Shown here in pieces: positions 2,424-57,348 of a stretch of DNA of 64,000 nt. Under the pieces are notes generated by a model. The model was not told where the DNA came from. It worked only from the letters and a program-made list of their open reading frames with translations, and ran no database searches. Location: positions 1 to 64,000 of IMG/VR virus record IMGVR_UViG_3300026521_000466; one strand, written 5' to 3'. Source of the DNA: a virus. A program made the position numbers and the translations under genes. The first letter of the stretch is position 1; each line of letters opens with the position of its first letter.

Positions 2424-2447
2424 CAGTGTAGTGAATTCACTACACTG
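2424..2447. terminator. perfect 24-bp palindrome at convergent junction
   Basis: CAGTGTAGTGAA|TTCACTACACTG immediately after the sbcC stop. Confidence 0.7.
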
Positions 2448-2474
2448 GGTTATTTAACGCATTACAATATTATA

Positions 2475-2693
2475 CTATTCTTTTTTGGGTGCATTTTGGT
2501 CGCATGGACTATATGATTCAAGTCTATCTTTGGAGTACGCCTCTTCTAACTGTGTTAAATCATCATATATCTTTTTAGTGTCTGTTCTGTGCACTGTTTT
2601 GTATATTGTTTTCCAGAAGAGTAAACAACATCTCTGCTGCACATAATACCAAATTGTTCCATTGTATCTGTCTGTTCTTATTCTGTATTTCAT
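2475..2693 (-). CDS. hypothetical protein (72 aa)
   Basis: ORF with AAGGA RBS, downstream of 2703-3215. Confidence 0.65.
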   Translation of the reverse strand: MKYRIRTDRYNGTIWYYVQQRCCLLFWKTIYKTVHRTDTKKIYDDLTQLEEAYSKDRLESYSPCDQNAPKKE

Positions 2694-2702
2694 TATTTTC
2701 CT

Positions 2703-3215
2703 TTATTCAAACATAGACTCTACATACTTCTTATAATCTCTGAATTTCAGTGTTGGGTTAACTATTATATACTCTCTTAAGTCATTTCCATATCTCCAGT
2801 AGATACTTTTTATATCTTTATAGAAATGTCTACCCATATCTTTCACGCTCTTTTTTGTTGGTGTGAATATAGTATTTTCATACACTGTTTCTATAATATC
2901 ATCGGTAGGCACTATATATGCTACTTCATCAACCGCAATCATAAACATCGCATCTATCTTATTCATAATGAAGATATTGTCCATATCGTTATTCATATCC
3001 TTATAATATTCTTTGTAAGGTCTCATGTTTATATATACTACGGCAGTATTTTTGCTTTTCAGTCCTTTTATCCGTTCAAAATCTCTTCTCGTTATATAAT
3101 GACCGTTTGTAATTATTACTTCTTTCTTTTTAGCTACCAGCATAGCACATACTATACCTCTTACAGATCTTGGTATCACCACTATTACTTTTTCATAACT
3201 TAACAAATCTTTCAT
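2703..3215 (-). CDS. hypothetical protein
   Basis: 170-aa ORF with AGGAG RBS. Confidence 0.7.
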   Translation of the reverse strand: MKDLLSYEKVIVVIPRSVRGIVCAMLVAKKKEVIITNGHYITRRDFERIKGLKSKNTAVVYINMRPYKEYYKDMNNDMDNIFIMNKIDAMFMIAVDEVAYIVPTDDIIETVYENTIFTPTKKSVKDMGRHFYKDIKSIYWRYGNDLREYIIVNPTLKFRDYKKYVESMFE

Positions 3216-3292
3216 TATCTTTTCTCCTACTTGATATTCTTATTTAATAAGTCTCATATATTTTTACTGAATTTAAATTTTAAGGAGATGAG

Positions 3293-3742
3293 ATGAAAAG
3301 GATACTGCTTGTTGATGTATTAAATAATACTACAAAAAAACATATAAGAAATATTGAAAAACACTATAGGTCAAAGGTTTATTATCTTAGTAAAGATAAA
3401 GTTATTATGACAATACTAGACGAAGCTCTTCCAAAATGGCTTTCCTTTTTTGTTAAGAATTATACAAAAGAATTGATGCACCTTTTTGAAATAGTTTTCG
3501 GTGATGCCATGAACGAATATATTTATGGGGTTATTGATAACCGTATTGAGTTACATAGAGGTGAAATAAATAATACACTATTCGTAATTACCGGAATGAC
3601 TCTCAGTAAGGATGTATACTATTTTAAAAAGTGTAAGTATAAAGCAGTGTCTGTTATGTCTGAATATACTAACTTTGCAGATTTTTCAGTGGGTGAATAT
3701 GATGAAAGAATTACAAAGGCAATAATCTCTTCTTTAGCATGA
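3293..3742 (+). CDS. hypothetical protein
   Basis: 149-aa ORF, AAGGAG RBS, TTTTTACTGA motif upstream. Confidence 0.7.
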   Translation: MKRILLVDVLNNTTKKHIRNIEKHYRSKVYYLSKDKVIMTILDEALPKWLSFFVKNYTKELMHLFEIVFGDAMNEYIYGVIDNRIELHRGEINNTLFVITGMTLSKDVYYFKKCKYKAVSVMSEYTNFADFSVGEYDERITKAIISSLA

Positions 3743-3777
3743 TGACTAATTCCTTGAATATAATTCAAAGGATATAA

Positions 3778-4083
3778 ATGGTTTCATTAGGGAAACAACG
3801 ATGGAGAAATAGTTCGGCCTATAGACATTGGGCAGAAGATATAAAAAAAAGAGACGGGTGCTGTATGATATGTGGTAGTGAAAAGAAATTGAATGCGCAC
3901 CACATCAACGATGCGTCAAACCACCCAGACCTTAGATACGATATGGATAATGGTATAACGTTGTGCAGAAAATGTCATGTACTTTATCATATTCTTTTTA
4001 GAGGCGGTTATCGAAAGAAAACAACCAAGAAAGATTTTAAAAAATATAGAGCGTTGGTAAAATACTATATGAACTTAGAGTAG
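3778..4083 (+). CDS. HNH endonuclease
   Basis: CMICG...AHHI...DLRYDMDNGITLCRKCH..YH: HNH motif with Zn-binding Cys pairs. Confidence 0.88.
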   Translation: MVSLGKQRWRNSSAYRHWAEDIKKRDGCCMICGSEKKLNAHHINDASNHPDLRYDMDNGITLCRKCHVLYHILFRGGYRKKTTKKDFKKYRALVKYYMNLE

Positions 4084-4105
4084 TGCGTCAAATGACGCAC
4101 TACTC
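4078..4105. terminator. 13-bp inverted repeat with 2-nt spacer at convergent junction
   Basis: GAGTAGTGCGTCA-AA-TGACGCACTACTC, includes the HNH stop codon. Confidence 0.7.
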
Positions 4106-4116
4106 CATGCTCTTTT

Positions 4117-5028
4117 TTAAAAGAGATCATTTAAGTTTTTCTTTTTCACTAACAGTTTCATATCAACAGATAGTTTTGGTGTATCCAACATCTTTGCAAA
4201 GTTTTTCAGCGTGTTCTTCAGCATAGTCTTTTGGTAGAGTCTTTCATTATCATACAACCATAAAAGAGCCAGCATAGTGACAGGTGAACGTAGACCTATC
4301 AAGAAATGAAGTCGGTGTGATTGAAATACCATTGATGATAACATACTATGCAGTACATCACCTTCCAGTTTTCTTAATGTTATAGAACATCTATCATTTT
4401 TGAATATGTCAAGCACATCCTGTAAAGTAACGAGGTCATTGTCTCCGATCATCTCATGAATGTCGTTCTCATTCATTACATCGCCTATTACACTGGTGGA
4501 TGCTACATGGAAACCTGAATATCCTTTAGTTTCATTCATTATATTATAAGCGTAAATGGCCACTATGTTGTTTACAATCATTAAGTCGCTGTTATCTAAC
4601 ATCAACTGTGATTTTAATTGTCCATTAATTAGAATTTGTAATGTCTTACTATATAATTTATAGTGCTCTCTTAAACCACCAATTGCTTCTTCATCAGTTA
4701 ATGCTGCTAGCAACAGTTTGTATCTGTAATCACTTCTTAGATTTAACATATCTTTTAAATTGTCTTTCTCGGGATGTCTAATCACATCTCTCATATCAAC
4801 AACCAGTTTATCATCAATGAGGTATGGGAACTTCAATACTGGAAGAGCTTTCTCCTCATATGTCTTGCCTGTTATAATATACAGGTCTTTTACTGTATCT
4901 ATTCCGTAGTTTTTCTTATCACCTAGTGTGAACTCTCTGAATTTTGTTTTATCTATAACAAAAGCCTTGCCAATGTCGGTATCTTGAGGTAACATATTTA
5001 TATCCTTATTTACATCTTTATAGGTCAT
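4117..5028 (-). CDS. putative phiKZ-like virion structural protein
   Basis: 303-aa ORF divergent from terminase; function inferred from context only. Confidence 0.5.
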   Translation of the reverse strand: MTYKDVNKDINMLPQDTDIGKAFVIDKTKFREFTLGDKKNYGIDTVKDLYIITGKTYEEKALPVLKFPYLIDDKLVVDMRDVIRHPEKDNLKDMLNLRSDYRYKLLLAALTDEEAIGGLREHYKLYSKTLQILINGQLKSQLMLDNSDLMIVNNIVAIYAYNIMNETKGYSGFHVASTSVIGDVMNENDIHEMIGDNDLVTLQDVLDIFKNDRCSITLRKLEGDVLHSMLSSMVFQSHRLHFLIGLRSPVTMLALLWLYDNERLYQKTMLKNTLKNFAKMLDTPKLSVDMKLLVKKKNLNDLF

Positions 5029-5094: not shown

Positions 5095-7218
5095 ATGATT
5101 TTATTTAAAGAGGATTGGGACAAATACCCATCTGCTATTGTACATTATACGACAAAGAACAAATCTGCGTTACAACTTTCTGTGTTACTGAAGAAGATGG
5201 GACAAGAGAACAATAAATTCTTTCTATCATTATTGAACCCAAAACTTATTAATATTGATCCACATGACCCAAACCTTACATACCAAGAAAAGGTAATGGT
5301 TGTTGAAGAGTGCCAAGCTAATTTTTGGTACTATATTAGAGAGGTAGCCAGAGTTCCAGTTAAAGGATCTCCGGAGCCCATTATGTTGGAACTTAATAGA
5401 GCAAATATTGCACTGTTCTGGTTATACTTTTTACATATAACACAGCTACTTATTCAACCAAGACAGACAGGTAAATCTCTGAATGTTGATGAACTTATTG
5501 TTTGGCTAAGTATTCTTGGATTAATAAAATCTAACATAGAAGGTGTTACAAAGAATACATCTCTTAGAGGGGATGAGATAGAAAGACTTAAAGATATTAT
5601 AAACACACTTCCACCATATTTGAATCTTAGAAGTAAAAAGGATACGAATAATATGGAAGATGTTACTATAAAAGCATTAGGTAACAGAGTCAGGTTCAGT
5701 GTTGCACAGAAAGATAAATCGGCTGCTTTGAATATTGGCCGTGGCGTTACATCAGCAAACGTATTTATCGATGAGATTGCTTTTATTCTTAATATTGATT
5801 TAACACTTCCAACTATACTTGCTGCAATGAATGCCGCTGTAGATGAAGCTAAAAAGAATGGTTCGCCATATGGGAGGGTTTTTTATACAACAGCTGGATT
5901 CTTGGATACTCCGTCGGGAGAGTTTGTTTATAAGAATATCTATAGTAAAGCATTTAGATTTAAAGAAGTTCTTTACGATATGAAAAATAAGGAAGAAGTT
6001 TACTCTTTCATTGTAAAAAATTCACAGTCAAAAACACCACTGGTGCTTGTGGAGATGAATCATAGATCTTTGAATAAAAGTGATGAATGGCTAGCAGAGA
6101 AACTATCGGAGGCTATGTCAAGCGGTGAAAGAGGTGAGGCTGACTATCTATTAAAGTGGAGTCGTGGTTCTTCAAACTCTGCGTTGGATAAAAAGATATA
6201 TAAAATATTGAGTAACTCAATAACAGAACCCGACCATACTGAAGTGAGTCCGTTTATGTTGTGTCTTGATTGGTATATTCCAGAAAATGAGAAAGAGAAA
6301 TATCAGTATAAACCATTTGCCATAGGATTGGATACATCAGATGGTTTCGGAAACGATGACCTTGGATTTGTTGGCCGTGATCCTATCACAGGAGAGGTGA
6401 TTGTTAAAGGTAAATATAATAATCTTTCACTGCATGAGTTTGGAGAGTTTCTATTTTGGTTCATGAAGAAGTATAGTCGATCTACTCTTATCTTTGAAAG
6501 AAAGAGTTCGGGCATGTCTATATGTGATCATATTGTTACTCATATGTGTGCAAATGATATGAATCCTTTTAAACGCATATTCAACTGGGTAATAGACGAT
6601 GATCGATATCATGAAGTAGTCGATAATTTCAATGGTGATTTATATCTTGCATATATTGAAAACAAAAAGTATTTCGGTTATGCAACTTCTGGTTCAGGTA
6701 GAAATGCAAGATCTAATTTATACGGTGATGTTTTAATGGAGTCTTTGAAACTCACTGGTGATTCTACCAGAGATAAGGATTTAGTCCATCAGTTATTACG
6801 ACTTGAGTTGAAGAATGGTAGAATTGATCATAAGCCCAATGAGCATGATGACCTTGTAATTGCTTATATGTTATGTTTCTGGTTATTCACACGTGCAAGA
6901 AATATTGATCTTTACGGATATCGGCCAGAAAGTATACTAACCGCAGTAATTATTTCTGATTCTGATTTTAAAAGTGAGCAAGAGAAGAAAGAGAAAGCTG
7001 CTGAAAGACACTCAATTGTGGATGAAATAAACATCCTTCTTGATAAACTAAAGGCTACAGATGATAAATACATCAAATTAAAATCTATAGCCCGTATTAC
7101 TTTATTGAAATCAAAATTGACAAAAGAAGATGTTGTTACATTGAACTTGGAACAACAATTAAAAGAGATACAAAAAAATAAAAAGGATACTCATGAGGAT
7201 CTCACTAGATGGTATTAA
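5095..7218 (+). CDS. terminase large subunit (phiKZ gp25-like)
   Basis: Walker A PRQTGKS, Walker B FIDE, nuclease GLDTS and HDDL motifs; upstream of the sheath/tube block. Confidence 0.92.
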   Translation: MILFKEDWDKYPSAIVHYTTKNKSALQLSVLLKKMGQENNKFFLSLLNPKLINIDPHDPNLTYQEKVMVVEECQANFWYYIREVARVPVKGSPEPIMLELNRANIALFWLYFLHITQLLIQPRQTGKSLNVDELIVWLSILGLIKSNIEGVTKNTSLRGDEIERLKDIINTLPPYLNLRSKKDTNNMEDVTIKALGNRVRFSVAQKDKSAALNIGRGVTSANVFIDEIAFILNIDLTLPTILAAMNAAVDEAKKNGSPYGRVFYTTAGFLDTPSGEFVYKNIYSKAFRFKEVLYDMKNKEEVYSFIVKNSQSKTPLVLVEMNHRSLNKSDEWLAEKLSEAMSSGERGEADYLLKWSRGSSNSALDKKIYKILSNSITEPDHTEVSPFMLCLDWYIPENEKEKYQYKPFAIGLDTSDGFGNDDLGFVGRDPITGEVIVKGKYNNLSLHEFGEFLFWFMKKYSRSTLIFERKSSGMSICDHIVTHMCANDMNPFKRIFNWVIDDDRYHEVVDNFNGDLYLAYIENKKYFGYATSGSGRNARSNLYGDVLMESLKLTGDSTRDKDLVHQLLRLELKNGRIDHKPNEHDDLVIAYMLCFWLFTRARNIDLYGYRPESILTAVIISDSDFKSEQEKKEKAAERHSIVDEINILLDKLKATDDKYIKLKSIARITLLKSKLTKEDVVTLNLEQQLKEIQKNKKDTHEDLTRWY

Positions 7219-8405: not shown

Positions 8406-10082
8406 ATGATATATAGAATACCAGAATATAATGGAACTGAAACACATACCGGTACGGATTGGTATGTTTTCCAATCTAATGATACCTCTGATAAATCAGA
8501 TTCTATTTTTTCAGTTACAAATAAACCGGAATATAAAAATATAGTGAATATTACAATCAATATACCGGTTGGAAATATTTACTATCTTGTAGCTTACTTA
8601 AAGTTATCGGATGGTACAGTTATCATCACAGACCCAATGCCTATGACACACTATGATATGGATGGTAAAAAGATACATCCTATTTCATACGGTGTGGAAA
8701 CACCGCGTATCAATATAGTCAGTAATGACTTTGCTAATGATGGCGATATTGTTATTTCTACTACAAAGATACGTCCTACGGATAACGTTTTAAAGAAACA
8801 GGTGATTGTTGTTACAGATGAAACAAACACTGTTTTAAAATATGATGAAGTTGAAGGGTATGAATATACAATAGATAGAAATATTATACCAACAGATACG
8901 CATGATATAATTGTCTACGTCGCTCATATAGACCATACAAATACTTCTAGTGAGTTTGCCAGACAGAGAATTCATTTAGTGGATAATGATATACTCTTAT
9001 TGAACCCTAAAATACTGCCTCTATATCAGTACATCCCCAAGTTTGAAGGTGAGTATGGAGCTGTTACAGAACTTGTTATCTCTGATAATGGTAGTATTGT
9101 ATTCTCCAGCCCAAATAATAAAGTTCCTAAAAACACACTTCTATTTGATAAAAGCTATGAAATGATTGTCACATTCAGGGTAGAGAATAATCAGTTTAAA
9201 ACATATACCTATCGCATTACCACAGTCAGCAGTAAAAGTGTTGATTATCTTGAAGAGTATGAGTATACAGGATTTGAAAATACAGATGAGTATAATCTCT
9301 TTATGGTGGATAATTCACATATTGATATTACTGCAAGAAACCTTATGGGGTTTGTGGATAATGAAGAGTATGTTGTAAAATATCTGAATAATGCTTCATA
9401 TACAGGTAAGATACATCTTCCATATGAGCCTTTAAGTAATTCAGAAACAATTAATCTCGCTGATAATATTGTTTATACAAAATATAAAACAGAAAATGGT
9501 TTTGCTGTTATTGTAGTTAATCTTAGTAGCGAGTACGCTGTCCCTGCAATATTGTCCAGCATAGAGATCACTGATGCTTTATCAAATGACTGTGTGATGA
9601 TAAGTGGACATGATATTGTTTATCTTAGAGAGAACGGCGCTGGTGAAGTAGAGCTAGTAAATAGAGATATCGATAGTGGCAATGATAAAATTATCACAGT
9701 AGTGCCAGACGAATATATCACAGACGATAATCCTCAAACCGGATATGAAGGCCTTTACAATAATCAATACTCTATGTTTTTATACGATAACCTTATATTG
9801 ATCATGAACAGAAATTTAGGTGTGTTTGCCTATGATAGATATACATCTTCTTTCAAATTTATTTTTAATCTTGAGGATGAGGATAAAGGCAAATCCTATT
9901 TTGGTTTAAGGTTACATGGTAATAAAATGATGTATGTCAATACTAATTCAAATGTTTATGTTTATGACTTTGATGTCGATGAGGCGATAGTGACCGCTAT
10001 AGATCCATCCAGTAATGTAATAAACATACTGGCATATGAAGTGCTTTTTAAAACAGAGAATGGGTATCTTATTTATAAGTAA
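8406..10082 (+). CDS. putative virion/fibre protein (Ig-like N-terminus, possible beta-propeller C-terminus)
   Basis: HTGTDWYV motif; beta-rich C-terminus; position in the structural operon. Confidence 0.55.
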   Translation: MIYRIPEYNGTETHTGTDWYVFQSNDTSDKSDSIFSVTNKPEYKNIVNITINIPVGNIYYLVAYLKLSDGTVIITDPMPMTHYDMDGKKIHPISYGVETPRINIVSNDFANDGDIVISTTKIRPTDNVLKKQVIVVTDETNTVLKYDEVEGYEYTIDRNIIPTDTHDIIVYVAHIDHTNTSSEFARQRIHLVDNDILLLNPKILPLYQYIPKFEGEYGAVTELVISDNGSIVFSSPNNKVPKNTLLFDKSYEMIVTFRVENNQFKTYTYRITTVSSKSVDYLEEYEYTGFENTDEYNLFMVDNSHIDITARNLMGFVDNEEYVVKYLNNASYTGKIHLPYEPLSNSETINLADNIVYTKYKTENGFAVIVVNLSSEYAVPAILSSIEITDALSNDCVMISGHDIVYLRENGAGEVELVNRDIDSGNDKIITVVPDEYITDDNPQTGYEGLYNNQYSMFLYDNLILIMNRNLGVFAYDRYTSSFKFIFNLEDEDKGKSYFGLRLHGNKMMYVNTNSNVYVYDFDVDEAIVTAIDPSSNVINILAYEVLFKTENGYLIYK

Positions 10083-10206
10083 TGGTGCGGATTACCGCAC
10101 TGTTACAAAAATATTTTTTTTATTAGTTGAATATGTTAATTCTATTCGCGATAGGGTTTATTTCCCACAATTAAAAACGTTTTTATTTCACAAGAAAGGA
10201 CACTAA

Positions 10207-12369
10207 ATGAACATTAGAAATGCTACTCCTATGCATTACATGGATGGTATGAAAGATGAGAGTGCGGGCGGTGTATTCCCCGAACCAAAAGGGCTGTCAC
10301 AATTCCAACCTCTTATTATATCCCATGCAGTAAAAGGACCATATGGTGAGTTTGAATGTACCGGTAAAGAACTCGAAGCTATTTTTGGCCTTGATACAAT
10401 CAACCCACTCAGCAAGTTTTACACGCACCAAACACACATGGCGTCAAAGATATTGAAGGCAGGTGGCGTTGTCAGTTTTAAAAGACTGCAATATATTAAT
10501 TCTCCACGAACACTACCTTATAACGTAGGCGATCCGGATGACACCAATGGTATTGCTAACATTGCATACTATTTGGTAATTACCGATGAGATCACAAGAA
10601 AACCATTCCTTAGAAATCAGGACGGTACTGTCGAAATGGTTGATGGGGTTCCACAAGAAGACCCAAATGGTGATGACATACAAGTTAAATATGCTATGCT
10701 TACCGCAAAGTATATACCGCAGTATAATGAAGATACGCAACTCTCTTCAATCATGGTAGAAGATGGAATGACCATATTTGGACAAACTGTAGATATTACA
10801 GCGTATCCTCTTTTTGTAGTTCCTGCTGAGGCTCACGGTGAATACTATAATAATATTGGTGTTGCGCTTACTGTTGCTGATGACATTGATATGGTTACAA
10901 AAGGGATGTTCCCATTCCAATTTTCACTGGTTGATAAGTCTACTGGTAGAGCAAAGATACATACAACAATTAATGAGGCAAAAGGTGCTAAGTTTACATT
11001 TAGACCAGATTCAAGTCACCCGTTGACAAATGCTTCTGTAACATTTGAAGATCTCATACCTCATGATTTCGGTAATTATACCGATGCTGATTATGAAGTA
11101 AAACCATATACTATTGGGGATGTTCGCTTGCTGAGAAATTATGTAAGTGATGTCACTATGATGGTGTCTGGTAGAGAGCTTGAGGGGTACAATGGCGTAT
11201 TGCCTGGATACTCAGATTATTCTGCTGGTGATGTTTCTGCATTACTCAACGAGCAGTATCTTGCAAATATTGTTGATTTTAAACACTCCAACGGTGCACT
11301 TTTCGAGTATACTAGATATGCATATAGTGGAGTATTGTCAGACCAAGCTAAAGCAGCGGTCGGTGTGAGAGTTCAAAGTACAATGTCTACACCTACTTAT
11401 ATGCAAGGTGGATATGACGGAGCAGTATTTGATAACGATGCATTTGAGGCAGCTATTGTAACAGAGCTGAAAGATGGATTTGGTGATCCTGCGAGCAGAT
11501 TGAACAATATGGCGATCAGTAGATTCTCTACATTTATCGATACTGGGTTCAGTGCAGCAACCAAGACAGAGTTTGGTGTAGTGCTTTCAAATAGAAAAGA
11601 CTTAAATCTCATTGGTGCGACTGCGTTCCTTAACAAACAGAACAAGAAACAAGAGAATGATGAAGCTATATCAATGGCGGCCATTCTTAACAGTATGTAT
11701 TCTATCTATACAGAATCAGAGCTCTACAACACACCTACATTCAGATACTGTATTGTTATGGGAAGTGGACTTTCCAGACATGAAAACTACAGATATCATC
11801 TACCATTAACATACGACTTCGTATATAAGAACGTAAGAATGTTTGGTGGTAAAGACGGTAAGTGGAACACTAAATATGAGTTCTCTGCAAGAGGTGGTAA
11901 TAACATTACCGAGCAAACAGATATCTATCCTGATTTTGTGCCTGACACTATCAAGAACAAACTATGGACATCTAACCTTATCTGGCCTCAAGGTAAAGAT
12001 AAACAGACATGGATATACCCAGCAATGCAAACAGGTTATAACGACGATACTTCAGTTGCAAACGGATGGTATTCAGTTATTGCAGACTGTTATGCGCAAA
12101 AAGTACTGAATGAAACATTCTTGTACCTGGTAGGTGATCAAGTGATGACCCGTACAGAATATAAAGATGAGTTTATTCGTTATGCATCAGCTATGTTGTC
12201 AGCAGAACACTTCGGTAATATTATTGAAGCTAAAGTAGTACTGCACTATACAAAAGAGGATGAACAAAGAGGTTACTCAGCACATGCGTATGTTGAACTA
12301 TATGTTCCTAACATGAAAACAGTGATAAATTCACATGTTGTTATGAAGCGTATTGATAACCTAGTATAA
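10207..12369 (+). CDS. contractile tail sheath protein (phiKZ gp29-like)
   Basis: N-terminal NATP..GMKDES, YMQGGYDG, DTGFS, 720 aa, directly upstream of the tube gene. Confidence 0.88.
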   Translation: MNIRNATPMHYMDGMKDESAGGVFPEPKGLSQFQPLIISHAVKGPYGEFECTGKELEAIFGLDTINPLSKFYTHQTHMASKILKAGGVVSFKRLQYINSPRTLPYNVGDPDDTNGIANIAYYLVITDEITRKPFLRNQDGTVEMVDGVPQEDPNGDDIQVKYAMLTAKYIPQYNEDTQLSSIMVEDGMTIFGQTVDITAYPLFVVPAEAHGEYYNNIGVALTVADDIDMVTKGMFPFQFSLVDKSTGRAKIHTTINEAKGAKFTFRPDSSHPLTNASVTFEDLIPHDFGNYTDADYEVKPYTIGDVRLLRNYVSDVTMMVSGRELEGYNGVLPGYSDYSAGDVSALLNEQYLANIVDFKHSNGALFEYTRYAYSGVLSDQAKAAVGVRVQSTMSTPTYMQGGYDGAVFDNDAFEAAIVTELKDGFGDPASRLNNMAISRFSTFIDTGFSAATKTEFGVVLSNRKDLNLIGATAFLNKQNKKQENDEAISMAAILNSMYSIYTESELYNTPTFRYCIVMGSGLSRHENYRYHLPLTYDFVYKNVRMFGGKDGKWNTKYEFSARGGNNITEQTDIYPDFVPDTIKNKLWTSNLIWPQGKDKQTWIYPAMQTGYNDDTSVANGWYSVIADCYAQKVLNETFLYLVGDQVMTRTEYKDEFIRYASAMLSAEHFGNIIEAKVVLHYTKEDEQRGYSAHAYVELYVPNMKTVINSHVVMKRIDNLV

Positions 12370-12385: not shown

Positions 12386-13276
12386 ATGATATTAACAGAC
12401 GCATACGAAAATACAGCACCTGCGGGAGGAGCATCTTACGCACCTATGGCAAACCTGTTGTACGGTAGTACAGAAGGGCACACCGCCCATCTGTCAAGAA
12501 TGCTACAAGACGGTTCTGTCTTTGAAGAGTATATGTCCGCGGAACCATACATTAGTAACGATGTTGTTCCAGTGGTTGTAAGAACACCAAAGATATTTGA
12601 CGCACTAGCTGATGTAGCACTTGGAAAAAGATTAAAGCAACACTATATCAAAATGATGACGATCGCCCCTAAAACTATTGATGGACTTAAAAGAACAGTT
12701 AATGTCTCTTTTGCAGAAGATAGATTGAACGGAGGCGGTCAGATATTTGAAAGTGTTTCCAATGTGACTCGTGAAAGAGCTGAACCTACACACACATATA
12801 CAGATCGTGTCGGTAAGCCTTTCTGGTATTTGCTTGACTTTATCATTCGTTATGGTAGAATGGACCCTGAGACAAAAACTCCATTGGCTGTCACATTGCC
12901 ATTGAAGCCTGGGTTCCTTGATAAAGGACAACACTTGACTCCTGATTTTTATACAGGATCAATGCTTTACTTTGAACCAACACATACTGGAAAAGATATT
13001 ATTGAAGCATATGTTTGTGGTAATATGATGCCTAAAACAACAGGTGATAATACCAGCAAAAGAGATAAAGGTTCAGATAGAGAAAAGTCTGAATTGAGCA
13101 TTCCATTTACTTCAATCGATATCTCCGGTGATCCAGCTAAAGCAGTTGCTCAAATTGTACTTGATAAAATGAATGTGTTTAAATCAAATCCAGATAAATT
13201 GTCTGCATTTGTAAACGATACAGATATTCAGAAAGCTATGGAAGCATCACTTGGTTTTGACGAAGTAGTAAGATAA
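12386..13276 (+). CDS. tail tube protein (phiKZ gp30-like)
   Basis: 296 aa after the sheath; IDGL, DPETK.P, NMMPK motifs typical of the family. Confidence 0.85.
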   Translation: MILTDAYENTAPAGGASYAPMANLLYGSTEGHTAHLSRMLQDGSVFEEYMSAEPYISNDVVPVVVRTPKIFDALADVALGKRLKQHYIKMMTIAPKTIDGLKRTVNVSFAEDRLNGGGQIFESVSNVTRERAEPTHTYTDRVGKPFWYLLDFIIRYGRMDPETKTPLAVTLPLKPGFLDKGQHLTPDFYTGSMLYFEPTHTGKDIIEAYVCGNMMPKTTGDNTSKRDKGSDREKSELSIPFTSIDISGDPAKAVAQIVLDKMNVFKSNPDKLSAFVNDTDIQKAMEASLGFDEVVR

Positions 13277-13289: not shown

Positions 13290-13313
13290 CCCTAGACCTT
13301 TTTAGGTCTAGGG
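13290..13313. terminator. hairpin at convergent junction
   Basis: CCCTAGACCT-TTTT-AGGTCTAGGG overlapping the 3' end of ORF 13292-13633. Confidence 0.7.
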
Positions 13314-13633
13314 GTTACTCTTTTTACATTTCTATGTATAACACTGGGGCTGGTGTTATACATTTCTGCTATTTTATGGTAGCTAATTCCTTGTTTTCTT
13401 AACTCTATCAGATCATCGAGTTGTTTATCGGTAAACTTAAACCTCTTCTTTTTTGCACAATACTTACATCCTTTAGTATTACCACATGTAATATTTGCGC
13501 CAGTAACAAGAAACTCATTTTTACATTCACTGCATTTTACTTTCCATTTACGATGGCCATATGGTGTGGACGGCCCTCTTTCTATTACAGTTAATGTATC
13601 TATTTTTCTGCCTAATAGATTGTTCTCTTTCAT
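13292..13633 (-). CDS. Zn-ribbon plus HTH DNA-binding protein (homing-endonuclease accessory domains, no nuclease core)
   Basis: LLGRKIDTLTVI..WKVKCSEC...GCKYC followed by HTH SYHKIAEMYNTSPSVIHR. Confidence 0.65.
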   Translation of the reverse strand: MKENNLLGRKIDTLTVIERGPSTPYGHRKWKVKCSECKNEFLVTGANITCGNTKGCKYCAKKKRFKFTDKQLDDLIELRKQGISYHKIAEMYNTSPSVIHRNVKRVTPRPKKV

Positions 13634-13666
13634 AATCTCTCCTTTTATTAGATATAAAAATAGATA

Positions 13667-13690
13667 CAGCAGCGAACTATGTCGCTGCTG
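13667..13690 (-). terminator. stem-loop after ORF 13699-14196
   Basis: CAGCAGCGA-ACTATG-TCGCTGCTG. Confidence 0.7.
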
Positions 13691-13698
13691 CGTAGCAC

Positions 13699-15378: not shown

Positions 15379-15379
15379 G

Positions 15380-15407
15380 CTACAGTACCCTATATAGGGT
15401 ACTGTAG
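15380..15407. terminator. perfect 28-bp palindrome at convergent junction
   Basis: CTACAGTACCCTAT|ATAGGGTACTGTAG. Confidence 0.7.
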
Positions 15408-15411
15408 TTGG

Positions 15412-16188: not shown

Positions 16189-16195
16189 CTCTTTG

Positions 16196-37766: not shown

Positions 37767-37840
37767 CCCTCCTTTAAATTATCAACTAATAGAAATATAA
37801 AAATAAATATAATTAACACCATTCGGAAGACCGAATGGCA

Positions 37841-44399: not shown

Positions 44400-44419
44400 T
44401 ACCTTTAAGGAGTATAATT

Positions 44420-46390: not shown

Positions 46391-46404
46391 ACCCCGGCAT
46401 CTAT
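46373..46404. terminator. hairpin spanning overlapping convergent stop codons
   Basis: ATAGATGC-A-GGGG-ATTAAA-CCCC-G-GCATCTAT. Confidence 0.65.
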
Positions 46405-47046
46405 ATGTATTGCTTTCATGTATGCTTTTAACGTTTTCCCTATTTGGGTTTTATCCATAAACGGTTTCAGTTCTTGTTGGTTGACTTTGCCTTTTTTCAT
46501 AAGCATTCCTTTGAATGCATTTGAAGCACTTACATCACCGCCTCTAATTCCGAGTAGTTCTTTTAGAGAAACATCCATACCAATAGATTTCAGTATTTGC
46601 GTCTCCATATTTGAAAGTTCCCCACTTTTGCTATCACCTGCCACTTGGCCGGTGATGGTATTTCTTACCTTAGTGTTTTTATGCACTGTAAAGTTCTTCA
46701 TAATGTGTTGAGCAGCTAATCTTACCGGGAGTTCCAATATCTGATATTTGATATCAGGGGTAAATACATTTTCACCATCAGTAATGGTTAGTTTTTGATA
46801 TATATCTATTTTTAACTCTTTCAGTATCTTTCTGTTTCTGTTGGCATCTAACTTTATTTTAGGATGACCTTCTGGAGCGATTATGGTTAATGTACTTTTA
46901 CCATCTTTAATATCTTGTCTAAGTTGTTCAAACTCTTTATTGGAGAGTCCTTTAAAGAACTCTTCATATATTTTTTTATTTTCTCCGCTCGGGTCTATCT
47001 TTTGTATATATTTAAGAATAAACGACTCTGCTTTTTTTCTATCCAT
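46387..47046 (-). CDS. virion RNA polymerase beta C-terminal subunit (phiKZ gp149-like)
   Basis: TGQVAGDSKSGELSNMETQIL...LKELLGIRGGD parallels the RpoB C-terminal GQRFGEME...LQE.LT.KSDD region. Confidence 0.82.
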   Translation of the reverse strand: MDRKKAESFILKYIQKIDPSGENKKIYEEFFKGLSNKEFEQLRQDIKDGKSTLTIIAPEGHPKIKLDANRNRKILKELKIDIYQKLTITDGENVFTPDIKYQILELPVRLAAQHIMKNFTVHKNTKVRNTITGQVAGDSKSGELSNMETQILKSIGMDVSLKELLGIRGGDVSASNAFKGMLMKKGKVNQQELKPFMDKTQIGKTLKAYMKAIHIDAGV

Positions 47047-49888: not shown

Positions 49889-49918
49889 TAGTCTGTATGG
49901 CATATGCCATACAGACTA
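49889..49918. terminator. perfect 30-bp palindrome including the dUTPase stop
   Basis: TAGTCTGTATGGCAT|ATGCCATACAGACTA. Confidence 0.7.
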
Positions 49919-50665
49919 TACTACCATGTCATGATAAGTATCATGCAATGCATTATACATATTATCAAATGTCAACTCATCATGTAGTAACAAGTGTTCT
50001 TTAATTTCATTCATTACTACATTATCTTCTACTTCACCCCATTGTTTTACATATGTTCCATCTTGATATCCATTATTAAGCCTCAAGTAGTTCAATGCAT
50101 TCTTTGAAATGTATAACTCATATATTTCGTTCCATTCCATATTGAGGTATGACATCATCACCATTAATACAGACATACTATTTCGAGCTGCCTCAGCCTG
50201 ACTATGTTGTATTACTGCATTGTTAAGAGCTAGAATATGAAATATAAAATTATTTAGTAGCACCCGTACTTTAAAGATATCGAATTCTTTACCCTCTATC
50301 ACATACTCATCATTCTTAGTCTCACCATTGTACTTAAAGGTTACAACTATGTCATCAAACAAACCGGTCAGTGTTTCATGCTTGAAATCTCTTATTTTCA
50401 TAACATATATGATAAGAGAGATGACAAAGTGTAGTAGATCAATTAGTTCCACCTTAGCGTTTTCAAAATCATCACCGCTGTATTTCCAATGTTTCCAGTC
50501 AAAGCTATCTATGAATTCGGCTGCCTCTACAAGGATGGCAGTATCATATGCGATAGGTTTGCCTGTTTTACATATCCCTTTTAACCAATCTTCTCCGCAA
50601 GTTGCGGCATTCAGTTTACTCTGCACTTCAAACAACGAATAGAGCTGTTTCTTGTTTATTCTCAT
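49916..50665 (-). CDS. dut: dimeric all-alpha dUTPase (dUTPase_2, Campylobacter type)
   Basis: Q..LN, EAAEFIDSFDWKHWK, VELIDLLHF, KNALN.LR.NNGY.DGTY.K.W...EDN. Confidence 0.9.
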   Translation of the reverse strand: MRINKKQLYSLFEVQSKLNAATCGEDWLKGICKTGKPIAYDTAILVEAAEFIDSFDWKHWKYSGDDFENAKVELIDLLHFVISLIIYVMKIRDFKHETLTGLFDDIVVTFKYNGETKNDEYVIEGKEFDIFKVRVLLNNFIFHILALNNAVIQHSQAEAARNSMSVLMVMMSYLNMEWNEIYELYISKNALNYLRLNNGYQDGTYVKQWGEVEDNVVMNEIKEHLLLHDELTFDNMYNALHDTYHDMVV

Positions 50666-50751: not shown

Positions 50752-51327
50752 ATGGCAATATTTAGAATTTTATACCATGAGGATATAAATATTCTTCATA
50801 AGAGTTTTAAAAACTCCAAAGTAAGAGTATATCCTATATCCTACAATGGCGAAGTTATATCGAAGGTCCTAGGCGACCTCCTAAAAGATAAAGTTTATAA
50901 GTCTATTTATAAAGAGACTACTATCTCTCATAGGGTCACTAGGAAGAAAGAGCGAGAAGAGGCATTGGAAAAAACCACTATTATACAGTTGCAGGATGGT
51001 GGGATACATACATATTATAATAATGTGCGGTATACAGTATTTCTTCCTATACATAAAAAGAGCACACGACTATCTTATTTAAAAGCTCCATTGATGCATC
51101 TGTTAACTAAAGCAAAAGAATATAATTCAATAGCTATATCCTTCCCTCTTTATGGAGACGCATTCAGTACGATAAAGATAAAAGATATATTGGACTTGTT
51201 GATTACTTATAGAGATAGATATCCTGCATTTTTTAATCTCTTTATCTTAAAGAAAGAGTTGCCTAAAGTCCAGAAGATATTGAAAAAACATAATATTATA
51301 TTTGATCTAAAAGAGATAAAACCGTAG
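50752..51327 (+). CDS. degenerate macrodomain-like protein
   Basis: Colinear similarity by eye to 30756-31184 but lacking the Gly-rich loops. Confidence 0.45.
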   Translation: MAIFRILYHEDINILHKSFKNSKVRVYPISYNGEVISKVLGDLLKDKVYKSIYKETTISHRVTRKKEREEALEKTTIIQLQDGGIHTYYNNVRYTVFLPIHKKSTRLSYLKAPLMHLLTKAKEYNSIAISFPLYGDAFSTIKIKDILDLLITYRDRYPAFFNLFILKKELPKVQKILKKHNIIFDLKEIKP

Positions 51328-51354
51328 ACTACAGTGGAGTTCCACTGTAGTCTA
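51325..51354. terminator. 14-bp inverted repeat bounded by the two convergent TAG stops
   Basis: TAGACTACAGTGGA-GT-TCCACTGTAGTCTA. Confidence 0.7.
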
Positions 51355-53424
51355 TTCAAATAGTCTGGTAATAGATTTGTTGCTGTTATTAAATTTTATA
51401 AAATCACCTACTATAGTATCGCCCATGAATGCTGCGTATTTAGCAGGATTTGTGCTATCAATAATGTTCTTTTTAGCTATGGCCAATTTATATTTAATGC
51501 TCTTACTTACATACCTTGTATTCGTATAAGATCTGCCACCAATCCCTCTGATGTATTTTGATAATACATCATACTCATTTGTATAGCCACCAAATATACC
51601 AAGTAAGCCGTCATTTACAGAGGCTGTTGCTATATCTGAGAAATCAGTTATGCCAAACTTTAAATCTATATATAAAGGTGCGCCATACACATTCTTTTCA
51701 GAACTTGATGTTAATGAGACGGAAGTGATCATTCCGAAGTCTATATTCAGTACGCCGCGTATAAAAGCTTTACATAAATATGGCGAAGTATATGCTGTAT
51801 CACCTATGCTTAATGGTAAAGACCCGCCTAGTATAAGTGAGAGTATTACATCAATATCCATGGTGTTACTTATTGGGTTGGAATATGGCCCGCCTAACCT
51901 CATACTAAAACTATGGCTTGGTAAGGATACGCTACTATCACTCCACATTTTTGGAAATGATAGGTAGCCGCCACTAACTAATCCCGCAATAACATTAGTT
52001 AGTCCAAAAGTAGTTTTACTTAATGTTCCTGCTACTACGTCTCTTCCTGCTTTTATAAAGCTATCCACAGTATCACCTAGAAATTTACCATCTCCAAAAT
52101 TAAATCTAATATCTCTACTAGCAGATCCTATAGAGTTTATCATAGATTTGGCAGGTATATCTTTCACCTCGTTTGAGAATGATATGGTAGACCCTCCATC
52201 ATAAGTTACATAGAGAGCAATATATTCCATGCCGTAATTCTCTACTCCTTGTTTATATTTATGAAAGTTCTCTGTCCAAATATCAAAGTCACCAATAAGT
52301 CTTTTAAATAGTCCCGTCTCTTTATCTTTCTCTTTGTACTCATTTGGGTCTATGTTTGCTGTAGTAGCCTCTGGCCGTGATTTGTTCTGCGGGTTGGTGT
52401 GGCCCTCATTATCTTTATCAGAAGAGACCAGTTCTTTAGCAGACTGCATTATGTTGGCTACAGCATCTTTAAACTCTGCCAATACAGGTACGTTGATATA
52501 GAGTTTATCTACAATACCTTCTTCTAATGCAAGTCTATTCTTTTGTATGAGTTCATTGACCATCAACTGTGGTCGCGCAATAATATTGTAAATATTAAAT
52601 CCATATTTAGGATGCATAATATCTGGATATTCGGACTGTAGTTCTTTTAATAGTGATGCATCTACTTCTACAGGAACACCATATCTATCAGATTTACCAC
52701 TGCCTGTCTCCAACACCTTAAATTTTATTAAACCCCTTTCAGTTTGTAGTTGTGTTAATATATTGTTAGCTGTCTGTAGATAGTTGTGCATGTCTGGTTT
52801 AAAGCTGTAATATCTAAAGTCATCTCCGCCCACTAAGGTTTTAGTTACGGAATATATTTCATAAGCCGCTGTTATCCCTGGCATAATTGCCCATCTGGCC
52901 GCTTCCCCAGCTCCCTGGCCTAATGTATAAAAGAATGTAGTCCTACCCTCGTTAGCAATTATGGCCTTGCCATAATCTACAGCATTTGCAAAATTAGAGA
53001 ATATATTTCTATGCTTCGGTTTTCCAAATTCAAGATATAGTATGTTTGGCTGGCTTCGTAATTGTACCTCATCCCCCCACATAGTTCCCATACCCATATT
53101 CTTAGCATAAATATTATCTTCAAAATCCTCCCTGCCTTGTAACACGCCTTTTCTTGGCGGATCTGCCAATGGTGTATTTGCATAAGGAACACCCAAGGCG
53201 ATGTGACCACCTAATGAGGTATTCATAAATTCATTATTAGCAGTGCATCGGAATTGTGCACCATTATATTCATCTGGTATTTTCACAGAGGTTGTGATTA
53301 AATAATTGTTTGTAAAATAGACGTCATCTAGTATCACTACATCCTTTTTCGGTGCGACATATTCTGTTAATGGGTCGTATTCGATTTGAGGTAATTTATA
53401 TTCTATTGGTTGTTGTGCGGACAT
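51352..53424 (-). CDS. conserved phiKZ-like virion structural protein (probably baseplate/tail)
   Basis: NTSLGG, FPKMWSDS, GMITSVS motifs recalled from a jumbo-phage family. Confidence 0.6.
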   Translation of the reverse strand: MSAQQPIEYKLPQIEYDPLTEYVAPKKDVVILDDVYFTNNYLITTSVKIPDEYNGAQFRCTANNEFMNTSLGGHIALGVPYANTPLADPPRKGVLQGREDFEDNIYAKNMGMGTMWGDEVQLRSQPNILYLEFGKPKHRNIFSNFANAVDYGKAIIANEGRTTFFYTLGQGAGEAARWAIMPGITAAYEIYSVTKTLVGGDDFRYYSFKPDMHNYLQTANNILTQLQTERGLIKFKVLETGSGKSDRYGVPVEVDASLLKELQSEYPDIMHPKYGFNIYNIIARPQLMVNELIQKNRLALEEGIVDKLYINVPVLAEFKDAVANIMQSAKELVSSDKDNEGHTNPQNKSRPEATTANIDPNEYKEKDKETGLFKRLIGDFDIWTENFHKYKQGVENYGMEYIALYVTYDGGSTISFSNEVKDIPAKSMINSIGSASRDIRFNFGDGKFLGDTVDSFIKAGRDVVAGTLSKTTFGLTNVIAGLVSGGYLSFPKMWSDSSVSLPSHSFSMRLGGPYSNPISNTMDIDVILSLILGGSLPLSIGDTAYTSPYLCKAFIRGVLNIDFGMITSVSLTSSSEKNVYGAPLYIDLKFGITDFSDIATASVNDGLLGIFGGYTNEYDVLSKYIRGIGGRSYTNTRYVSKSIKYKLAIAKKNIIDSTNPAKYAAFMGDTIVGDFIKFNNSNKSITRLFE

Positions 53425-53487
53425 AAAACTCTCCTTTTCCTTATAATCAAGTAAAAAACTGAAAAAGAAAAGGGTGACAGTATGGCA

Positions 53488-53613
53488 TTACCACCATACT
53501 GTTGTATTTGTTTTTGATAATATTTTTTTGTCTCTGTAGATAATACGTAATTTTTTACCTTGTATCTCTATATTCAGTACCCTTAAGTTACTCTTCTTCT
53601 GACTTTTGCTCAT
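53488..53613 (-). CDS. small basic protein (41 aa), not in ORF track
   Basis: MSKSQKKSNLRVLNIEIQGKKLRIIYRDKKILSKTNTTVWW; AAGGA RBS; hairpin over the stop. Confidence 0.45.
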   Translation of the reverse strand: MSKSQKKSNLRVLNIEIQGKKLRIIYRDKKILSKTNTTVWW

Positions 53614-54163
53614 CACGTTCCTTTTTGCGCTTTTTATCAATGACAATAATTTGGTGTGTGTGTATATTTGAAACTAATTGTTTCATTGCATCAATGTATG
53701 CATTTGCTGTTAAGTAATACATCTGTTTATCAACATTAGTTCCATTGATATAGAAATTGAAGAATTTGGCATCCAGTAATACAGGAAAATCAAGATTATA
53801 CTCACCATGCGCGATGTTAAGTATCAGTGCACCAGACACAGCATCTACCCGTGTTGTTATTTTACCGACAGAGACAATATCGTCAGATTTGACGTTGTTC
53901 TCATAGTTATAGTTCTTGCTGTCAATTGTGATGGGTTCGCCACCATCTAACACGTTCTTCATTGCTGTGAACAGTGTCATAATACCAAGTAATGTGAATG
54001 TTACTTTTACATCAGGGTATTTTTTATTGCTCTCCCTTACTGTAAATCTTGGATATCCATCCATAAATTCTACTCCCAGGAAATACTCTTTGCCGTCCTT
54101 AATTGTTCTCAGGTTCATATGATAGAGTGAGAAGTACATTTTTTTTATATCGTTCATTGTCAA
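53588..54163 (-). CDS. conserved phiKZ-like hypothetical protein of the sbcD block
   Basis: GYPRFTV motif; synteny. Confidence 0.55.
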   Translation of the reverse strand: MTMNDIKKMYFSLYHMNLRTIKDGKEYFLGVEFMDGYPRFTVRESNKKYPDVKVTFTLLGIMTLFTAMKNVLDGGEPITIDSKNYNYENNVKSDDIVSVGKITTRVDAVSGALILNIAHGEYNLDFPVLLDAKFFNFYINGTNVDKQMYYLTANAYIDAMKQLVSNIHTHQIIVIDKKRKKERDEQKSEEE

Positions 54164-55212: not shown

Positions 55213-55234
55213 TACTCCTCCTTATTTTGATTTC

Positions 55235-55248
55235 TATATAATAATATA
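55235..55248 (-). promoter_or_regulatory. putative early promoter TATATTATTATATA
   Basis: Core TATATTATT about 25 nt upstream of the ATG at 55212. Confidence 0.45.
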
Positions 55249-55251
55249 CCA

Positions 55252-56328
55252 TTATAAAATATCTAATAGCAACTTATCATGCCTCTCTGTCAACGGAAGT
55301 CTTTTCTCTATATTCTCCCGTATGTTGTTTTTATCTATTTGATATGGTATGTATGTAACGACTATTTCTGTATCAATTACCTCAGAGTCTTTTCTCTCTA
55401 TCTTTAGATTGACGTCGTTCTCTTTTATCATGTTTGCTATCGGTGTGTAGTCTATATTGCTTCTAATTATTAGACGCACATGTTTAGGCTTATGTTCATT
55501 AATATATTTTTCAATCTGTGTTGTCCAGTAATGCACATCCTCATCATTAATATCAAATGTTTTAAATAACATAGCGTGTTTATTTTCTATAAAGTTAAAA
55601 GATTTATTTCCAGTCCCTGATAGATTAAATAGAACAAATCCTTTACTCTCTTCTTCATTAAATGCCATCCTATCAAAACTGCCAGGGGCTATGATGTTGT
55701 TCATGACACTAAACTTATGAATATGGTTTATTATTATATAGTATTTAACATAACTAAATTGAGAGACATCAAAACTATGCTCTAGTTTTATGGGTAGTTG
55801 ATAATCAAACATACCGTGAATGAATAGTAGATCCAGTGTATCAATTCCATACTTATCCATCTTCTCTCTCAATATCCGTTCTATCTCAATAGGAGAATAT
55901 CCAGTATCATCAGGTATAAATCCAATATGTAATCCTAACTCTTTATTATATACTATATCAATCTTTTCTATATATTTAAACAACTTCGAGTCATTATAGA
56001 GAGTTAATGTTTTTATTTGGTTATAGTCATGTGTAAATGTACCTTTTAAATAATATAGATACACATTGTGTTTTATAGCTAAATCATTTAGATACTTATC
56101 AAATTCAGCTATCATTAACGCATCTTCACTGCCTAATAATATATCTCTGTCATATAGATCGCCGTTAACTACAAAGATATCTATATTTCTAAATAGGTCA
56201 GGAGTGACATATCTATATAGATTAGCTATTATATATTTCGTTTCGTTTCTAGTATTGCCAAGATGGATATCTCCTATGGTGGCTCCTCTTACTTTAAACA
56301 TATCGACCCCCGTATTAAATTCAGACAA
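55252..56328 (-). CDS. sbcD: SbcD/Mre11-like metallophosphoesterase nuclease
   Basis: GDIHLG, NGDLYD, GTFTHD, HGMF, HIH, PGSFDR motifs. Confidence 0.9.
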   Translation of the reverse strand: MSEFNTGVDMFKVRGATIGDIHLGNTRNETKYIIANLYRYVTPDLFRNIDIFVVNGDLYDRDILLGSEDALMIAEFDKYLNDLAIKHNVYLYYLKGTFTHDYNQIKTLTLYNDSKLFKYIEKIDIVYNKELGLHIGFIPDDTGYSPIEIERILREKMDKYGIDTLDLLFIHGMFDYQLPIKLEHSFDVSQFSYVKYYIIINHIHKFSVMNNIIAPGSFDRMAFNEEESKGFVLFNLSGTGNKSFNFIENKHAMLFKTFDINDEDVHYWTTQIEKYINEHKPKHVRLIIRSNIDYTPIANMIKENDVNLKIERKDSEVIDTEIVVTYIPYQIDKNNIRENIEKRLPLTERHDKLLLDIL

Positions 56329-56375
56329 AAAGCTCCTTTAAACTTTTTTATTGATATAAAACGAAAGGGGCTACA

Positions 56376-56765
56376 ATGGTTACGCTCAACATACATAGTG
56401 AATTAACGGATTCATTAGCTGTAAAAAAACTCATGGATTATTTCTTAATATCTGATTTTTCCCAAACCTATTTCTATACAGGGCATGTATCATCTTTAAA
56501 ATATTTACTACAAGAGAAAGAAGAAAATAAGGTACGTACTGTAATAGATAGGATAGAGGAGAGTTTACATGCGTTATATAGTACATACTATCCATCAGTG
56601 AAGGTTTCTGTATCTCCTATATATGAAAAAGATAGTAATGTATATAATATTGCAGTAAATGTTATTGTAAAAAATAAAGAGGGAAATACTTTTGAATTAT
56701 CCGATAGGGTAGCTATTGATAATCCGTATAACAACAAATATATAGCAGAGCTAAAGAAAAGATAA
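56376..56765 (+). CDS. putative baseplate/sheath-initiator (gp25-like fold) protein
   Basis: SDFSQT..Y.G.VSSL.YL motif, 129 aa; fold inferred. Confidence 0.45.
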   Translation: MVTLNIHSELTDSLAVKKLMDYFLISDFSQTYFYTGHVSSLKYLLQEKEENKVRTVIDRIEESLHALYSTYYPSVKVSVSPIYEKDSNVYNIAVNVIVKNKEGNTFELSDRVAIDNPYNNKYIAELKKR

Positions 56766-56819
56766 AAAATAGTTTAACATTATATAGTGAATATATAACA
56801 ATTTAGAAAAGGATATACA

Positions 56820-57323
56820 ATGAGTAATTTTTTGGAAAAGATGGCAGATGACTTAGATAGTCTTGATTATGGAGGTACAGTTAAACTGAATGAAGATGCA
56901 TTTAAGAGACTTTACCTTCCATATATGATAGGTGAAAAACATAATGAGAATCTTGTAGCGAAATGGATAGAGTTGTCAGGCTCGCCGTTAAAAGAGGTAC
57001 AGCTTGTAAATGAGCAGGGTGAGGTAGTAAATACACTTCCGCCACTAATACAGCCAAATATTGACGCTAATGAAAATGGCGAACTGGATAACATGGCAAA
57101 CAGTTTGACAGAAGGAAAACTTCAAGAAGATATGTATGGTGCAAGCCCTATTATATCTAGTAAAATGACCGCCATTGCAAATTGTTTCGATAAACAATCT
57201 ATGTCTGATGAGTGGGTGTCAGCGTTGAAGCCGTATATCTCAGAGACGAAAGATGGTGAAGAAGAGGTGGGTGTGCATTCATCTAACCTAGACAACGAAG
57301 ATGAAATCGAATTAGAGTTTTAG
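56820..57323 (+). CDS. conserved phiKZ-like hypothetical protein
   Basis: F...YLP, WIELSG, V.LVNEQG..V.TLPP motif; AAGGA RBS. Confidence 0.6.
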   Translation: MSNFLEKMADDLDSLDYGGTVKLNEDAFKRLYLPYMIGEKHNENLVAKWIELSGSPLKEVQLVNEQGEVVNTLPPLIQPNIDANENGELDNMANSLTEGKLQEDMYGASPIISSKMTAIANCFDKQSMSDEWVSALKPYISETKDGEEEVGVHSSNLDNEDEIELEF

Positions 57324-57348
57324 TAGAGTGGGTCTATGCCCACTCTAC
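57323..57348. terminator. hairpin at convergent junction
   Basis: GTAGAGTGGG-TCTATG-CCCACTCTAC. Confidence 0.7.

Follow-up and report, generated by a model that had tools for sequence, protein, structure and literature searches.

Hairpin-forming palindromes at convergent gene ends as probable two-way transcription terminators in an uncultured phiKZ-like phage

The elements described here are inverted repeats that lie where genes converge in IMG/VR virus record IMGVR_UViG_3300026521_000466. The record is a single virus contig of 164,797 bp with 33-35% G+C, and its first 64 kb (positions 1 to 64,000) are referred to below as the window. Genes were called with a codon model trained on the long open reading frames of this genome. 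Judged by its gene content, the record is an uncultured phiKZ-like phage: several virion proteins of the phiKZ family are encoded in the window, and a second RNA polymerase beta-type locus at about 80.4-82.5 kb indicates that the phage has two polymerase sets, as phiKZ does. The genes in the window that bear on what follows are:

115-2421, plus strand: gene for an SbcC-like protein
5095-7218: large terminase gene
10207-12369: tail sheath gene
12386-13276, plus strand: tail tube gene
18396-22397, minus strand, and 22409-24031: two adjoining RNA polymerase subunit genes
34526-35086, plus strand: RuvC-like gene
55252-56328: possible SbcD gene

A first-pass annotation of the window had listed nine inverted repeats and held that they occupy all of its convergent junctions. 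All nine were located, and independent codon-scored gene calls reproduced their sites as the complete set of convergent junctions in the window. Three of them, not the four claimed earlier, are exact palindromes without a spacer, at 2424-2447 (24 bp), 15380-15407 (28 bp) and 35083-35106 (24 bp); the 30-bp repeat at 51325-51354 has a 2-nt centre, as has the 28-bp repeat at 4078-4105, and the remaining repeats in the window have loops of 4-6 nt. In the following list, and throughout, a T-rich tail is defined as five T in six positions within 16 nt of the stem.

2424-2447, both strands: predicted two-way terminator palindrome between the SbcC-like gene (plus) and a gene for a 72-residue protein (2475-2693, minus); 12 perfect pairs, spacerless; minus-side T-rich tail strong, plus-side one weak (TTATTT)
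4076-4107, both strands: predicted two-way terminator palindrome between genes 3778-4083 (plus) and 4117-5028 (minus); 14 pairs, 2-nt centre; stop of the plus-strand gene within the stem; T6 run 6 nt downstream on the plus side
13290-13313, both strands: predicted two-way terminator between the tail tube gene (plus) and 13292-13633 (minus); 10 pairs, 4-nt loop; stop of the minus-strand gene within the stem; T5 and T7 runs on the two sides, offset by 6-8 nt
15378-15409, both strands: predicted two-way terminator palindrome between 14380-15378 (plus) and 15412-16245 (minus); 15 pairs; T-rich tail on neither side, one of two such junctions in the window
30428-30453, both strands: predicted two-way terminator at the abutting ends of a gene for a 2110-residue protein (24098-30430, plus) and 30431-30745 (minus); both stops within the hairpin; T-rich tails on both sides
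35083-35106, both strands: predicted two-way terminator palindrome where the RuvC-like gene (plus) ends, facing 35103-35267 or 35309-36916 (minus); 12 perfect pairs
46373-46404, both strands: two-way hairpin contained in the ends, overlapping by 4 nt, of 44357-46390 (plus) and 46387-47046 (minus); the loop contains a TTAA (46387-46390) shared by the two overlapping TAA stops; both flanks coding, T-rich tail on neither side
51325-51354, both strands: predicted two-way terminator between 50752-51327 (plus) and a gene for a 690-residue virion protein (51352-53424, minus); two TAG stops form the outermost triplets of the stem
57321-57350, both strands: predicted two-way terminator between 56820-57323 (plus) and 57345-57647 (minus); both TAG stops in the stem

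Of these nine junctions, three have a T-rich tail at each flank, four at a single flank and two at none, so that seven have at least one. Past the junction palindrome at 13290-13313, and 40 nt inside the 3' end of gene 13292-13633 (minus), lies a second, perfect hairpin of 11 pairs (13334-13363), which may be a back-up stop against read-through on the plus strand. Where a palindrome encloses both convergent gene ends, as at 46373-46404 and, beyond the window, at 91377-91406 and 73023-73048, its symmetry forces near-identical C-terminal residues on two unrelated proteins.

The distribution of such hairpins over the whole contig was assessed by junction-centred RNA folding, in which the best 46-nt fold was recorded, with intragenic and dinucleotide-shuffled sequences as controls. 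At every one of the 21 convergent junctions the best fold was -17 kcal/mol or lower, when only 19 of 525 dinucleotide shuffles of the convergent regions reached -14 (median z = -6.2). A genome-wide scan for inverted repeats gave 40 Watson-Crick stems of at least 11 bp, compared with 1-9 (mean about 5) in five dinucleotide shuffles of the whole genome; the palindromes are real and highly non-random. Among genes on the same strand, a strong hairpin on the sense strand was found at 36 of 47 junctions with a gap of more than 40 nt and at 5 of 79 tighter junctions, and strong hairpins occur at only 1 of 20 divergent junctions. Palindromes of no fixed sequence stand at convergent and operon-final genes, and operon-internal genes are mostly without them. 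Since this pattern tracks the transcription units, the hairpins mark operon ends.

The first-pass annotation had named six further sites after tandem genes, and all six are present. The hairpins of this kind in the window are as follows, the terminator assignments again being predictions:

10079-10106, plus strand: one-way terminator hairpin after 8406-10082 (plus), followed by a T8 run
13666-13691, minus strand: one-way terminator hairpin after 13699-14196 (minus), with a U-rich tail on the minus strand
18371-18395, minus strand: hairpin overlapping the stop of the RNA polymerase subunit gene 18396-22397 (minus), without a U-rich tail
33071-33102, minus strand: hairpin followed by a U8 run on the minus strand, ending a short minus-strand unit
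37806-37851, minus strand: one-way terminator hairpin after 37841-38011 or 38013-40046 (minus), with a U-rich tail; the fold is 7 kcal/mol stronger on the sense strand
49890-49917, minus strand: perfect 15-pair palindrome overlapping the stop of 49916-50665 (minus)
53477-53502, minus strand: one-way terminator hairpin after 53588-54163 (minus), with a long U-rich tail on the minus strand

The single strong hairpin in a divergent gap is accounted for by the element at 33071-33102, because it closes a short minus-strand unit, which is either a 37-codon open reading frame (33081-33194) or a small RNA. The unit (33040-33215) lies in the gap between a GroEL-like gene and 33341-33730. It has a ribosome-binding-site-like AAAGGA, the open reading frame just mentioned, which is hydrophobic, a perfect internal stem of 15 pairs (33110-33149), and the terminator hairpin with its U8 run at the end, and its fold has a z-score of -7.2. 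It could be the gene of a small membrane peptide or a small RNA; a search of the window against Rfam gave no match.

The sequences that follow the stems are markedly directional. After one-way hairpins, 82% of flanks on the sense side have a T-rich tail, compared with 21% on the antisense side (p = 6e-7), though only about one-third of these tails begin at position +1. At convergent junctions T-rich tails were found in 24 of 40 flanks when the search was anchored at the core palindrome and in 22 of 42 when it was anchored at the folded stem (52-60%). The background is 15% for coding sequence read antisense and 21% for the strand facing the C-terminal codons of other genes (p = 1.5e-8 and 3e-4). 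The tracts at convergent junctions mostly start 2-8 nt past the stem, and a tail is present on one side or both at 16 of 20 junctions. Those without one include junctions at which coding sequence runs through both flanks, among them the 4-nt gene overlaps at 46390/46387 and 91393/91390. The commonest words in the tails are plain T-runs (TTTT in 47 of 76 flanks), and no position-specific TTAT or TATG signal was seen in them.

A promoter-like motif also recurs, consisting of a T-rich block and then the core GTATATTATTA, of which there are 46 copies with at most one substitution, mostly on the minus strand. They include sites at 33011, 55239 and 40 in the window (minus strand) and at 75382, 126936, 127334, 133655, 141449, 154782 and others beyond it. 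The motif often begins right after a terminator hairpin, and the tail and the upstream block of the promoter can share bases. The idea that the T-tracts after tandem genes are merely the upstream block of this early-promoter-like motif was nevertheless rejected: with such cases removed, 18 of 22 hairpins keep their tail (p = 8e-6).

Asymmetry between the strands distinguishes an RNA hairpin from a structure formed in DNA. In 26 of 32 one-way hairpins the sense strand folds more stably than its complement, by a mean of 2.8 kcal/mol (Wilcoxon p = 4e-4), and over the whole set the sense strands form 40 G:U pairs and the antisense strands 11 (p = 6e-5). In convergent hairpins the G:U content is 4-5% on either strand, and the mean difference in fold energy between their strands is 2.5 kcal/mol. 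Since G:U on one strand becomes an A:C mismatch on the other, stems that serve in both directions would be near-perfect Watson-Crick palindromes; the scarcity of G:U pairs at convergent junctions is as expected if both strands must fold. The convergent element is, in effect, a single Watson-Crick palindrome at which two units overlap and which folds on both strands. A cruciform gains nothing from G:U pairing, and the bias of these pairs towards the transcribed strand argues for a function in RNA.

The hairpins are closely interwoven with the ends of the reading frames. At 29 of 40 convergent gene ends the palindrome takes in at least part of the stop codon, and TAG accounts for 48% of stops there and 17% elsewhere; it is found in the 5' arm of 14 of 20 convergent palindromes, where 5.1 would be expected from shuffled arms. 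One-way terminators behave similarly: of 34, the hairpin starts no later than the stop in 18 and lies no more than 10 nt from it in nine others. The earlier description of the stems as differing in sequence, with TAG or CTA near their ends and stops inside them, is therefore borne out. The recurring TAG/CTA is the stop codon built into the stem and hence not a recognition site. G makes up 36% of the 5' arms of the stems and C 17%; counted from the loop, positions 2-4 are G in 45-69% of cases, and tetraloops prevail (37 of 55). A common recognition sequence was looked for in the stems and rejected, as only the G-rich top of the 5' arm and the TAG of the stop codon recur. Three terminator stems do have a GTATGGC...GCCATAC core in common (49889-49918 and 53478-53503 in the window, and 116495-116524 in the genome), and other stems have a GTGTGGG...CCCACAC core that is also present in the 164,667-bp relative described below, which suggests loose sub-families within an otherwise diverse set.

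A nucleotide search of the phage reference collection with this DNA gave no match, the tail sheath as a single-protein query against viral contigs gave none either, and protein identity to known phiKZ-like phages, or to any phage of the reference collection, reaches at most about 25-28%. A PhuZ-like tubulin is encoded on the minus strand beyond the window at 129868-130290 (E = 1.5e-8 to phiKZ PhuZ). Pairwise search of the phage genome with the phiKZ nuclear shell protein gave no match, and a 677-residue candidate for a shell protein had none in Pfam, PHROG or the phage collection. Relatives were reached with a profile of the 690-residue virion protein, scanned on viral and metagenome contigs. 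The most informative, of 164,667 bp, gives 79 reciprocal best hits with a median protein identity of 33%, and has hairpins at 21 of its 24 convergent junctions; both the bias in tails and the bias in sense-strand stability are reproduced in it. At 13 of the 21 convergent junctions of the phage under study, the ortholog of a flanking gene also ends convergently in this relative, and a hairpin is there in 12 of the 13. Of nine related loci examined for the gene of the 690-residue protein, all six whose protein match reaches the stop have a different strong hairpin at its 3' end; the other three are uninformative because the match ends short of the end of the gene. In the four of these loci that can be aligned, 5 of 14 stem pairs are doubly compensatory and none is broken. 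Taken together, these comparisons support the view that the palindromes act through structure, and not through shared sequence, at the 3' ends of genes and operons on both strands. An 81-kb contig, 99% identical to the 164,667-bp relative, spans the two ends of that relative with about 550 extra bases (loci L006-L014, G001; L015-L019, G002), which implies that the genome of about 165 kb is essentially complete and circularly permuted, despite a completeness estimate of 62%.

The best-supported interpretation is that the palindromes are RNA hairpin transcription terminators, working in both directions at convergent junctions, and to this we assign a probability of roughly 0.8. A stable stem-loop on the transcribed strand at the 3' end of the unit, the mark of bacterial-type intrinsic terminators, is present. 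We infer that transcripts end at the hairpins; the presumed readers would be the two phiKZ-type multisubunit RNA polymerases. The hairpin would pause or destabilise the elongating polymerase, a U-rich tail would aid release where the sequence has room for one, and between convergent genes one palindrome would serve both strands. Where there is no tail and both flanks are coding, the 3' end might be set by the hairpin alone, by head-on blocking of polymerases, or by trimming of read-through RNA back to the hairpin. In Escherichia coli a two-way element with weak intrinsic termination still sets the stopping point of converging polymerases (bioRxiv 10.1101/2022.10.23.513370), which offers a possible route for the tail-less cases.

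Several observations weigh against this interpretation. Bacterial intrinsic terminators have a U-tract of about 7-9 nt immediately behind the stem; over positions +1 to +4 after convergent stems T is at background level, so that these are not textbook terminators, and to that extent the earlier statement that adjacent U-tracts are mostly absent was correct; it does not hold for the flank as a whole, given the T-rich tails in 24 of 40 convergent flanks as against 15-21% in the background, and with tails at 16 of 20 junctions the label "U-tract-less" fits a minority only. All the same, a U-rich tail is missing from about 40% of convergent flanks, and 4 of 20 junctions lack one on both sides. The asymmetry in G:U pairs could be inflated by purine-rich sense strands. 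In the 99%-identical pair G001/G002 the hairpins differ at 7 positions, where 6.6 would be expected, and none of the differences is compensatory. Finally, no biochemical study of termination is described in a 2020 review of the polymerases of jumbo phages (PMC7598289).

The flanks that lack a tail also speak for regarding the hairpins as stabilisers or processing stops, at which read-through messages are trimmed by 3'-to-5' exonucleases until the hairpin protects what is left. Stems of 10-15 pairs are strong exonuclease blocks, and position and conservation fit this explanation as well as they fit termination. A pure stabiliser has no role, however, for the directional tails after one-way hairpins (82% against 21%), and stabilisers could be useful inside operons too, where hairpins are scarce (5 of 79 tight junctions); in 201phi2-1, moreover, similar hairpins act as terminators when placed in a reporter trap (PMC11512511). 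We regard this explanation as unlikely. Still less probable is a rule like that of Mimivirus, in which a nuclease would recognise and cut the palindromic RNA and so set the 3' end, possibly with tailing to follow. Typical substrates of RNase III are longer than these stems of 10-15 pairs, and such a rule leaves the U-rich tails unexplained. Its appeal is that in Mimivirus, too, palindromes without sequence conservation are sited at gene ends (PMC4402537). The enzymes for a route of this type, to which the first-pass annotation had drawn attention, were not found: RNase III (PF14622, PF00636) and poly(A) polymerase (PF01743) domains are undetectable in the 164.8-kb genome by searches whose controls matched in 8-10 of 14 genomes.

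That the palindromes act as DNA, either as cruciforms that RuvC and SbcCD of the phage would process or as targets of a dimeric DNA-binding protein, appears similarly remote. The convergent elements are certainly near-perfect DNA palindromes, and the phage encodes SbcC (115-2421), RuvC (34526-35086) and possibly SbcD (55252-56328); the first-pass annotation had named RuvC and SbcCD in offering cruciforms as its alternative. But G:U pairs are tolerated only on the transcribed strand of one-way hairpins (40 against 11), the strand that also folds better in 26 of 32, and the position of the hairpins follows the direction of transcription and not that of replication. The stems have no common recognition sequence beyond their G-rich top, and phiKZ likewise has an SbcD-like gene beside its mapped terminators. 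Palindromes of 24-32 bp are well under the sizes that SbcCD is known to attack in cells.

If the palindromes are indeed terminators, it is tempting to go further and suppose that in this lineage the hairpin alone may suffice to end transcription by the phage multisubunit polymerases, with the U-rich tail as an optional helper. This would explain the tail-less palindromes that lie within two overlapping coding ends (46373-46404 and, beyond the window, 91377-91406), but it is put forward as a speculation that we consider rather doubtful. Routine placement of stops in the stems of terminators would best suit a phage whose transcription is uncoupled from translation, as in a phage nucleus; if this is true, the stop-in-stem layout would be a sequence-level signature of such uncoupling. 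The stop-in-stem and tail-less elements provide a concrete set for testing termination by jumbo-phage polymerases. There is also a gain for annotation, as the hairpins flag operon ends and help in choosing between competing small open reading frames.

Set against known systems, the finding is sound and largely ordinary, the palindromes being most likely signals of the same kind as those mapped in phiKZ and 201phi2-1. Long-read RNA sequencing (ONT-cappable-seq) mapped 133 transcript ends in phiKZ, six of them two-way between convergent genes, and most of the predicted intrinsic terminators there share a hairpin-plus-TTAT motif (PMC10914365). In 201phi2-1 the same approach of long-read RNA sequencing mapped 132 transcript ends, of which 15 are two-way, and eight of the terminators, when placed in a reporter trap, also stopped the host polymerase in vivo (PMC11512511). 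In the first 100 kb of phiKZ, 7 of 7 annotated convergent junctions were found here to carry a palindromic hairpin. Together with the mapped ends, this shows that the rule is already general in characterised phiKZ-like phages, which the first-pass annotation had itself named as a finding that would speak against a phage-specific system. Of its proposal of a phage-specific, structure-only, bidirectional 3'-end system, what survives is that structure marks 3' ends on both strands; the evidence does not favour a system that lacks U-tracts, relies on structure alone and is peculiar to the phage.

The Mimivirus system is another parallel. There a viral RNase III-like enzyme cuts the hairpin and the cut end is polyadenylated (PMC4402537), the hairpin rule itself being traced in that paper to Byrne et al. 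2009. Both are large AT-rich viruses with transcription machinery of their own, in which non-conserved palindromes mark gene 3' ends (nearly all of them in Mimivirus); the phage differs in that neither enzyme is detectable in it and in that its hairpins have directional U-rich tails. Bacterial two-way terminators are alike in that a single hairpin is read from both strands, and in that upstream A-rich and downstream U-rich flanks can pair and lengthen the stem (for example at 2416-2455 and 57313-57357). Unlike the bacterial elements, those of the phage are presumably read by phage-encoded and not by host polymerases, the U-rich tract is often 2-8 nt away or absent, and many hairpins lie within coding sequence.

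The closest resemblance remains that to phiKZ and 201phi2-1, which likewise have two multisubunit phage RNA polymerases, stable hairpins at operon ends and convergent junctions, tails that are short or weak in place of long U-runs, and hairpins kept at matching positions in relatives. Within this common plan the phage has local peculiarities, namely sequence-varied stems, ordinary U-rich tails in place of the phiKZ tail, and stops that are routinely in the stem. The stems of phiKZ follow one common sequence, rich in C along the 5' arm and in G along the 3' arm, after which comes TTAT, whereas those of the present phage vary, have a 5' arm that is G-rich near the loop, are mostly closed by tetraloops and lead into a generic U-rich tail without the TTAT(G) signature. 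Gaps of 43-210 nt separate the genes at the seven phiKZ junctions and leave space for the hairpin; in the present phage it usually engulfs the stop. The phiKZ-type terminator layout is thereby extended to a deeply diverged, low-GC lineage of about 165 kb without a cultured member, and is seen to be independent of the conserved stem sequence of phiKZ.

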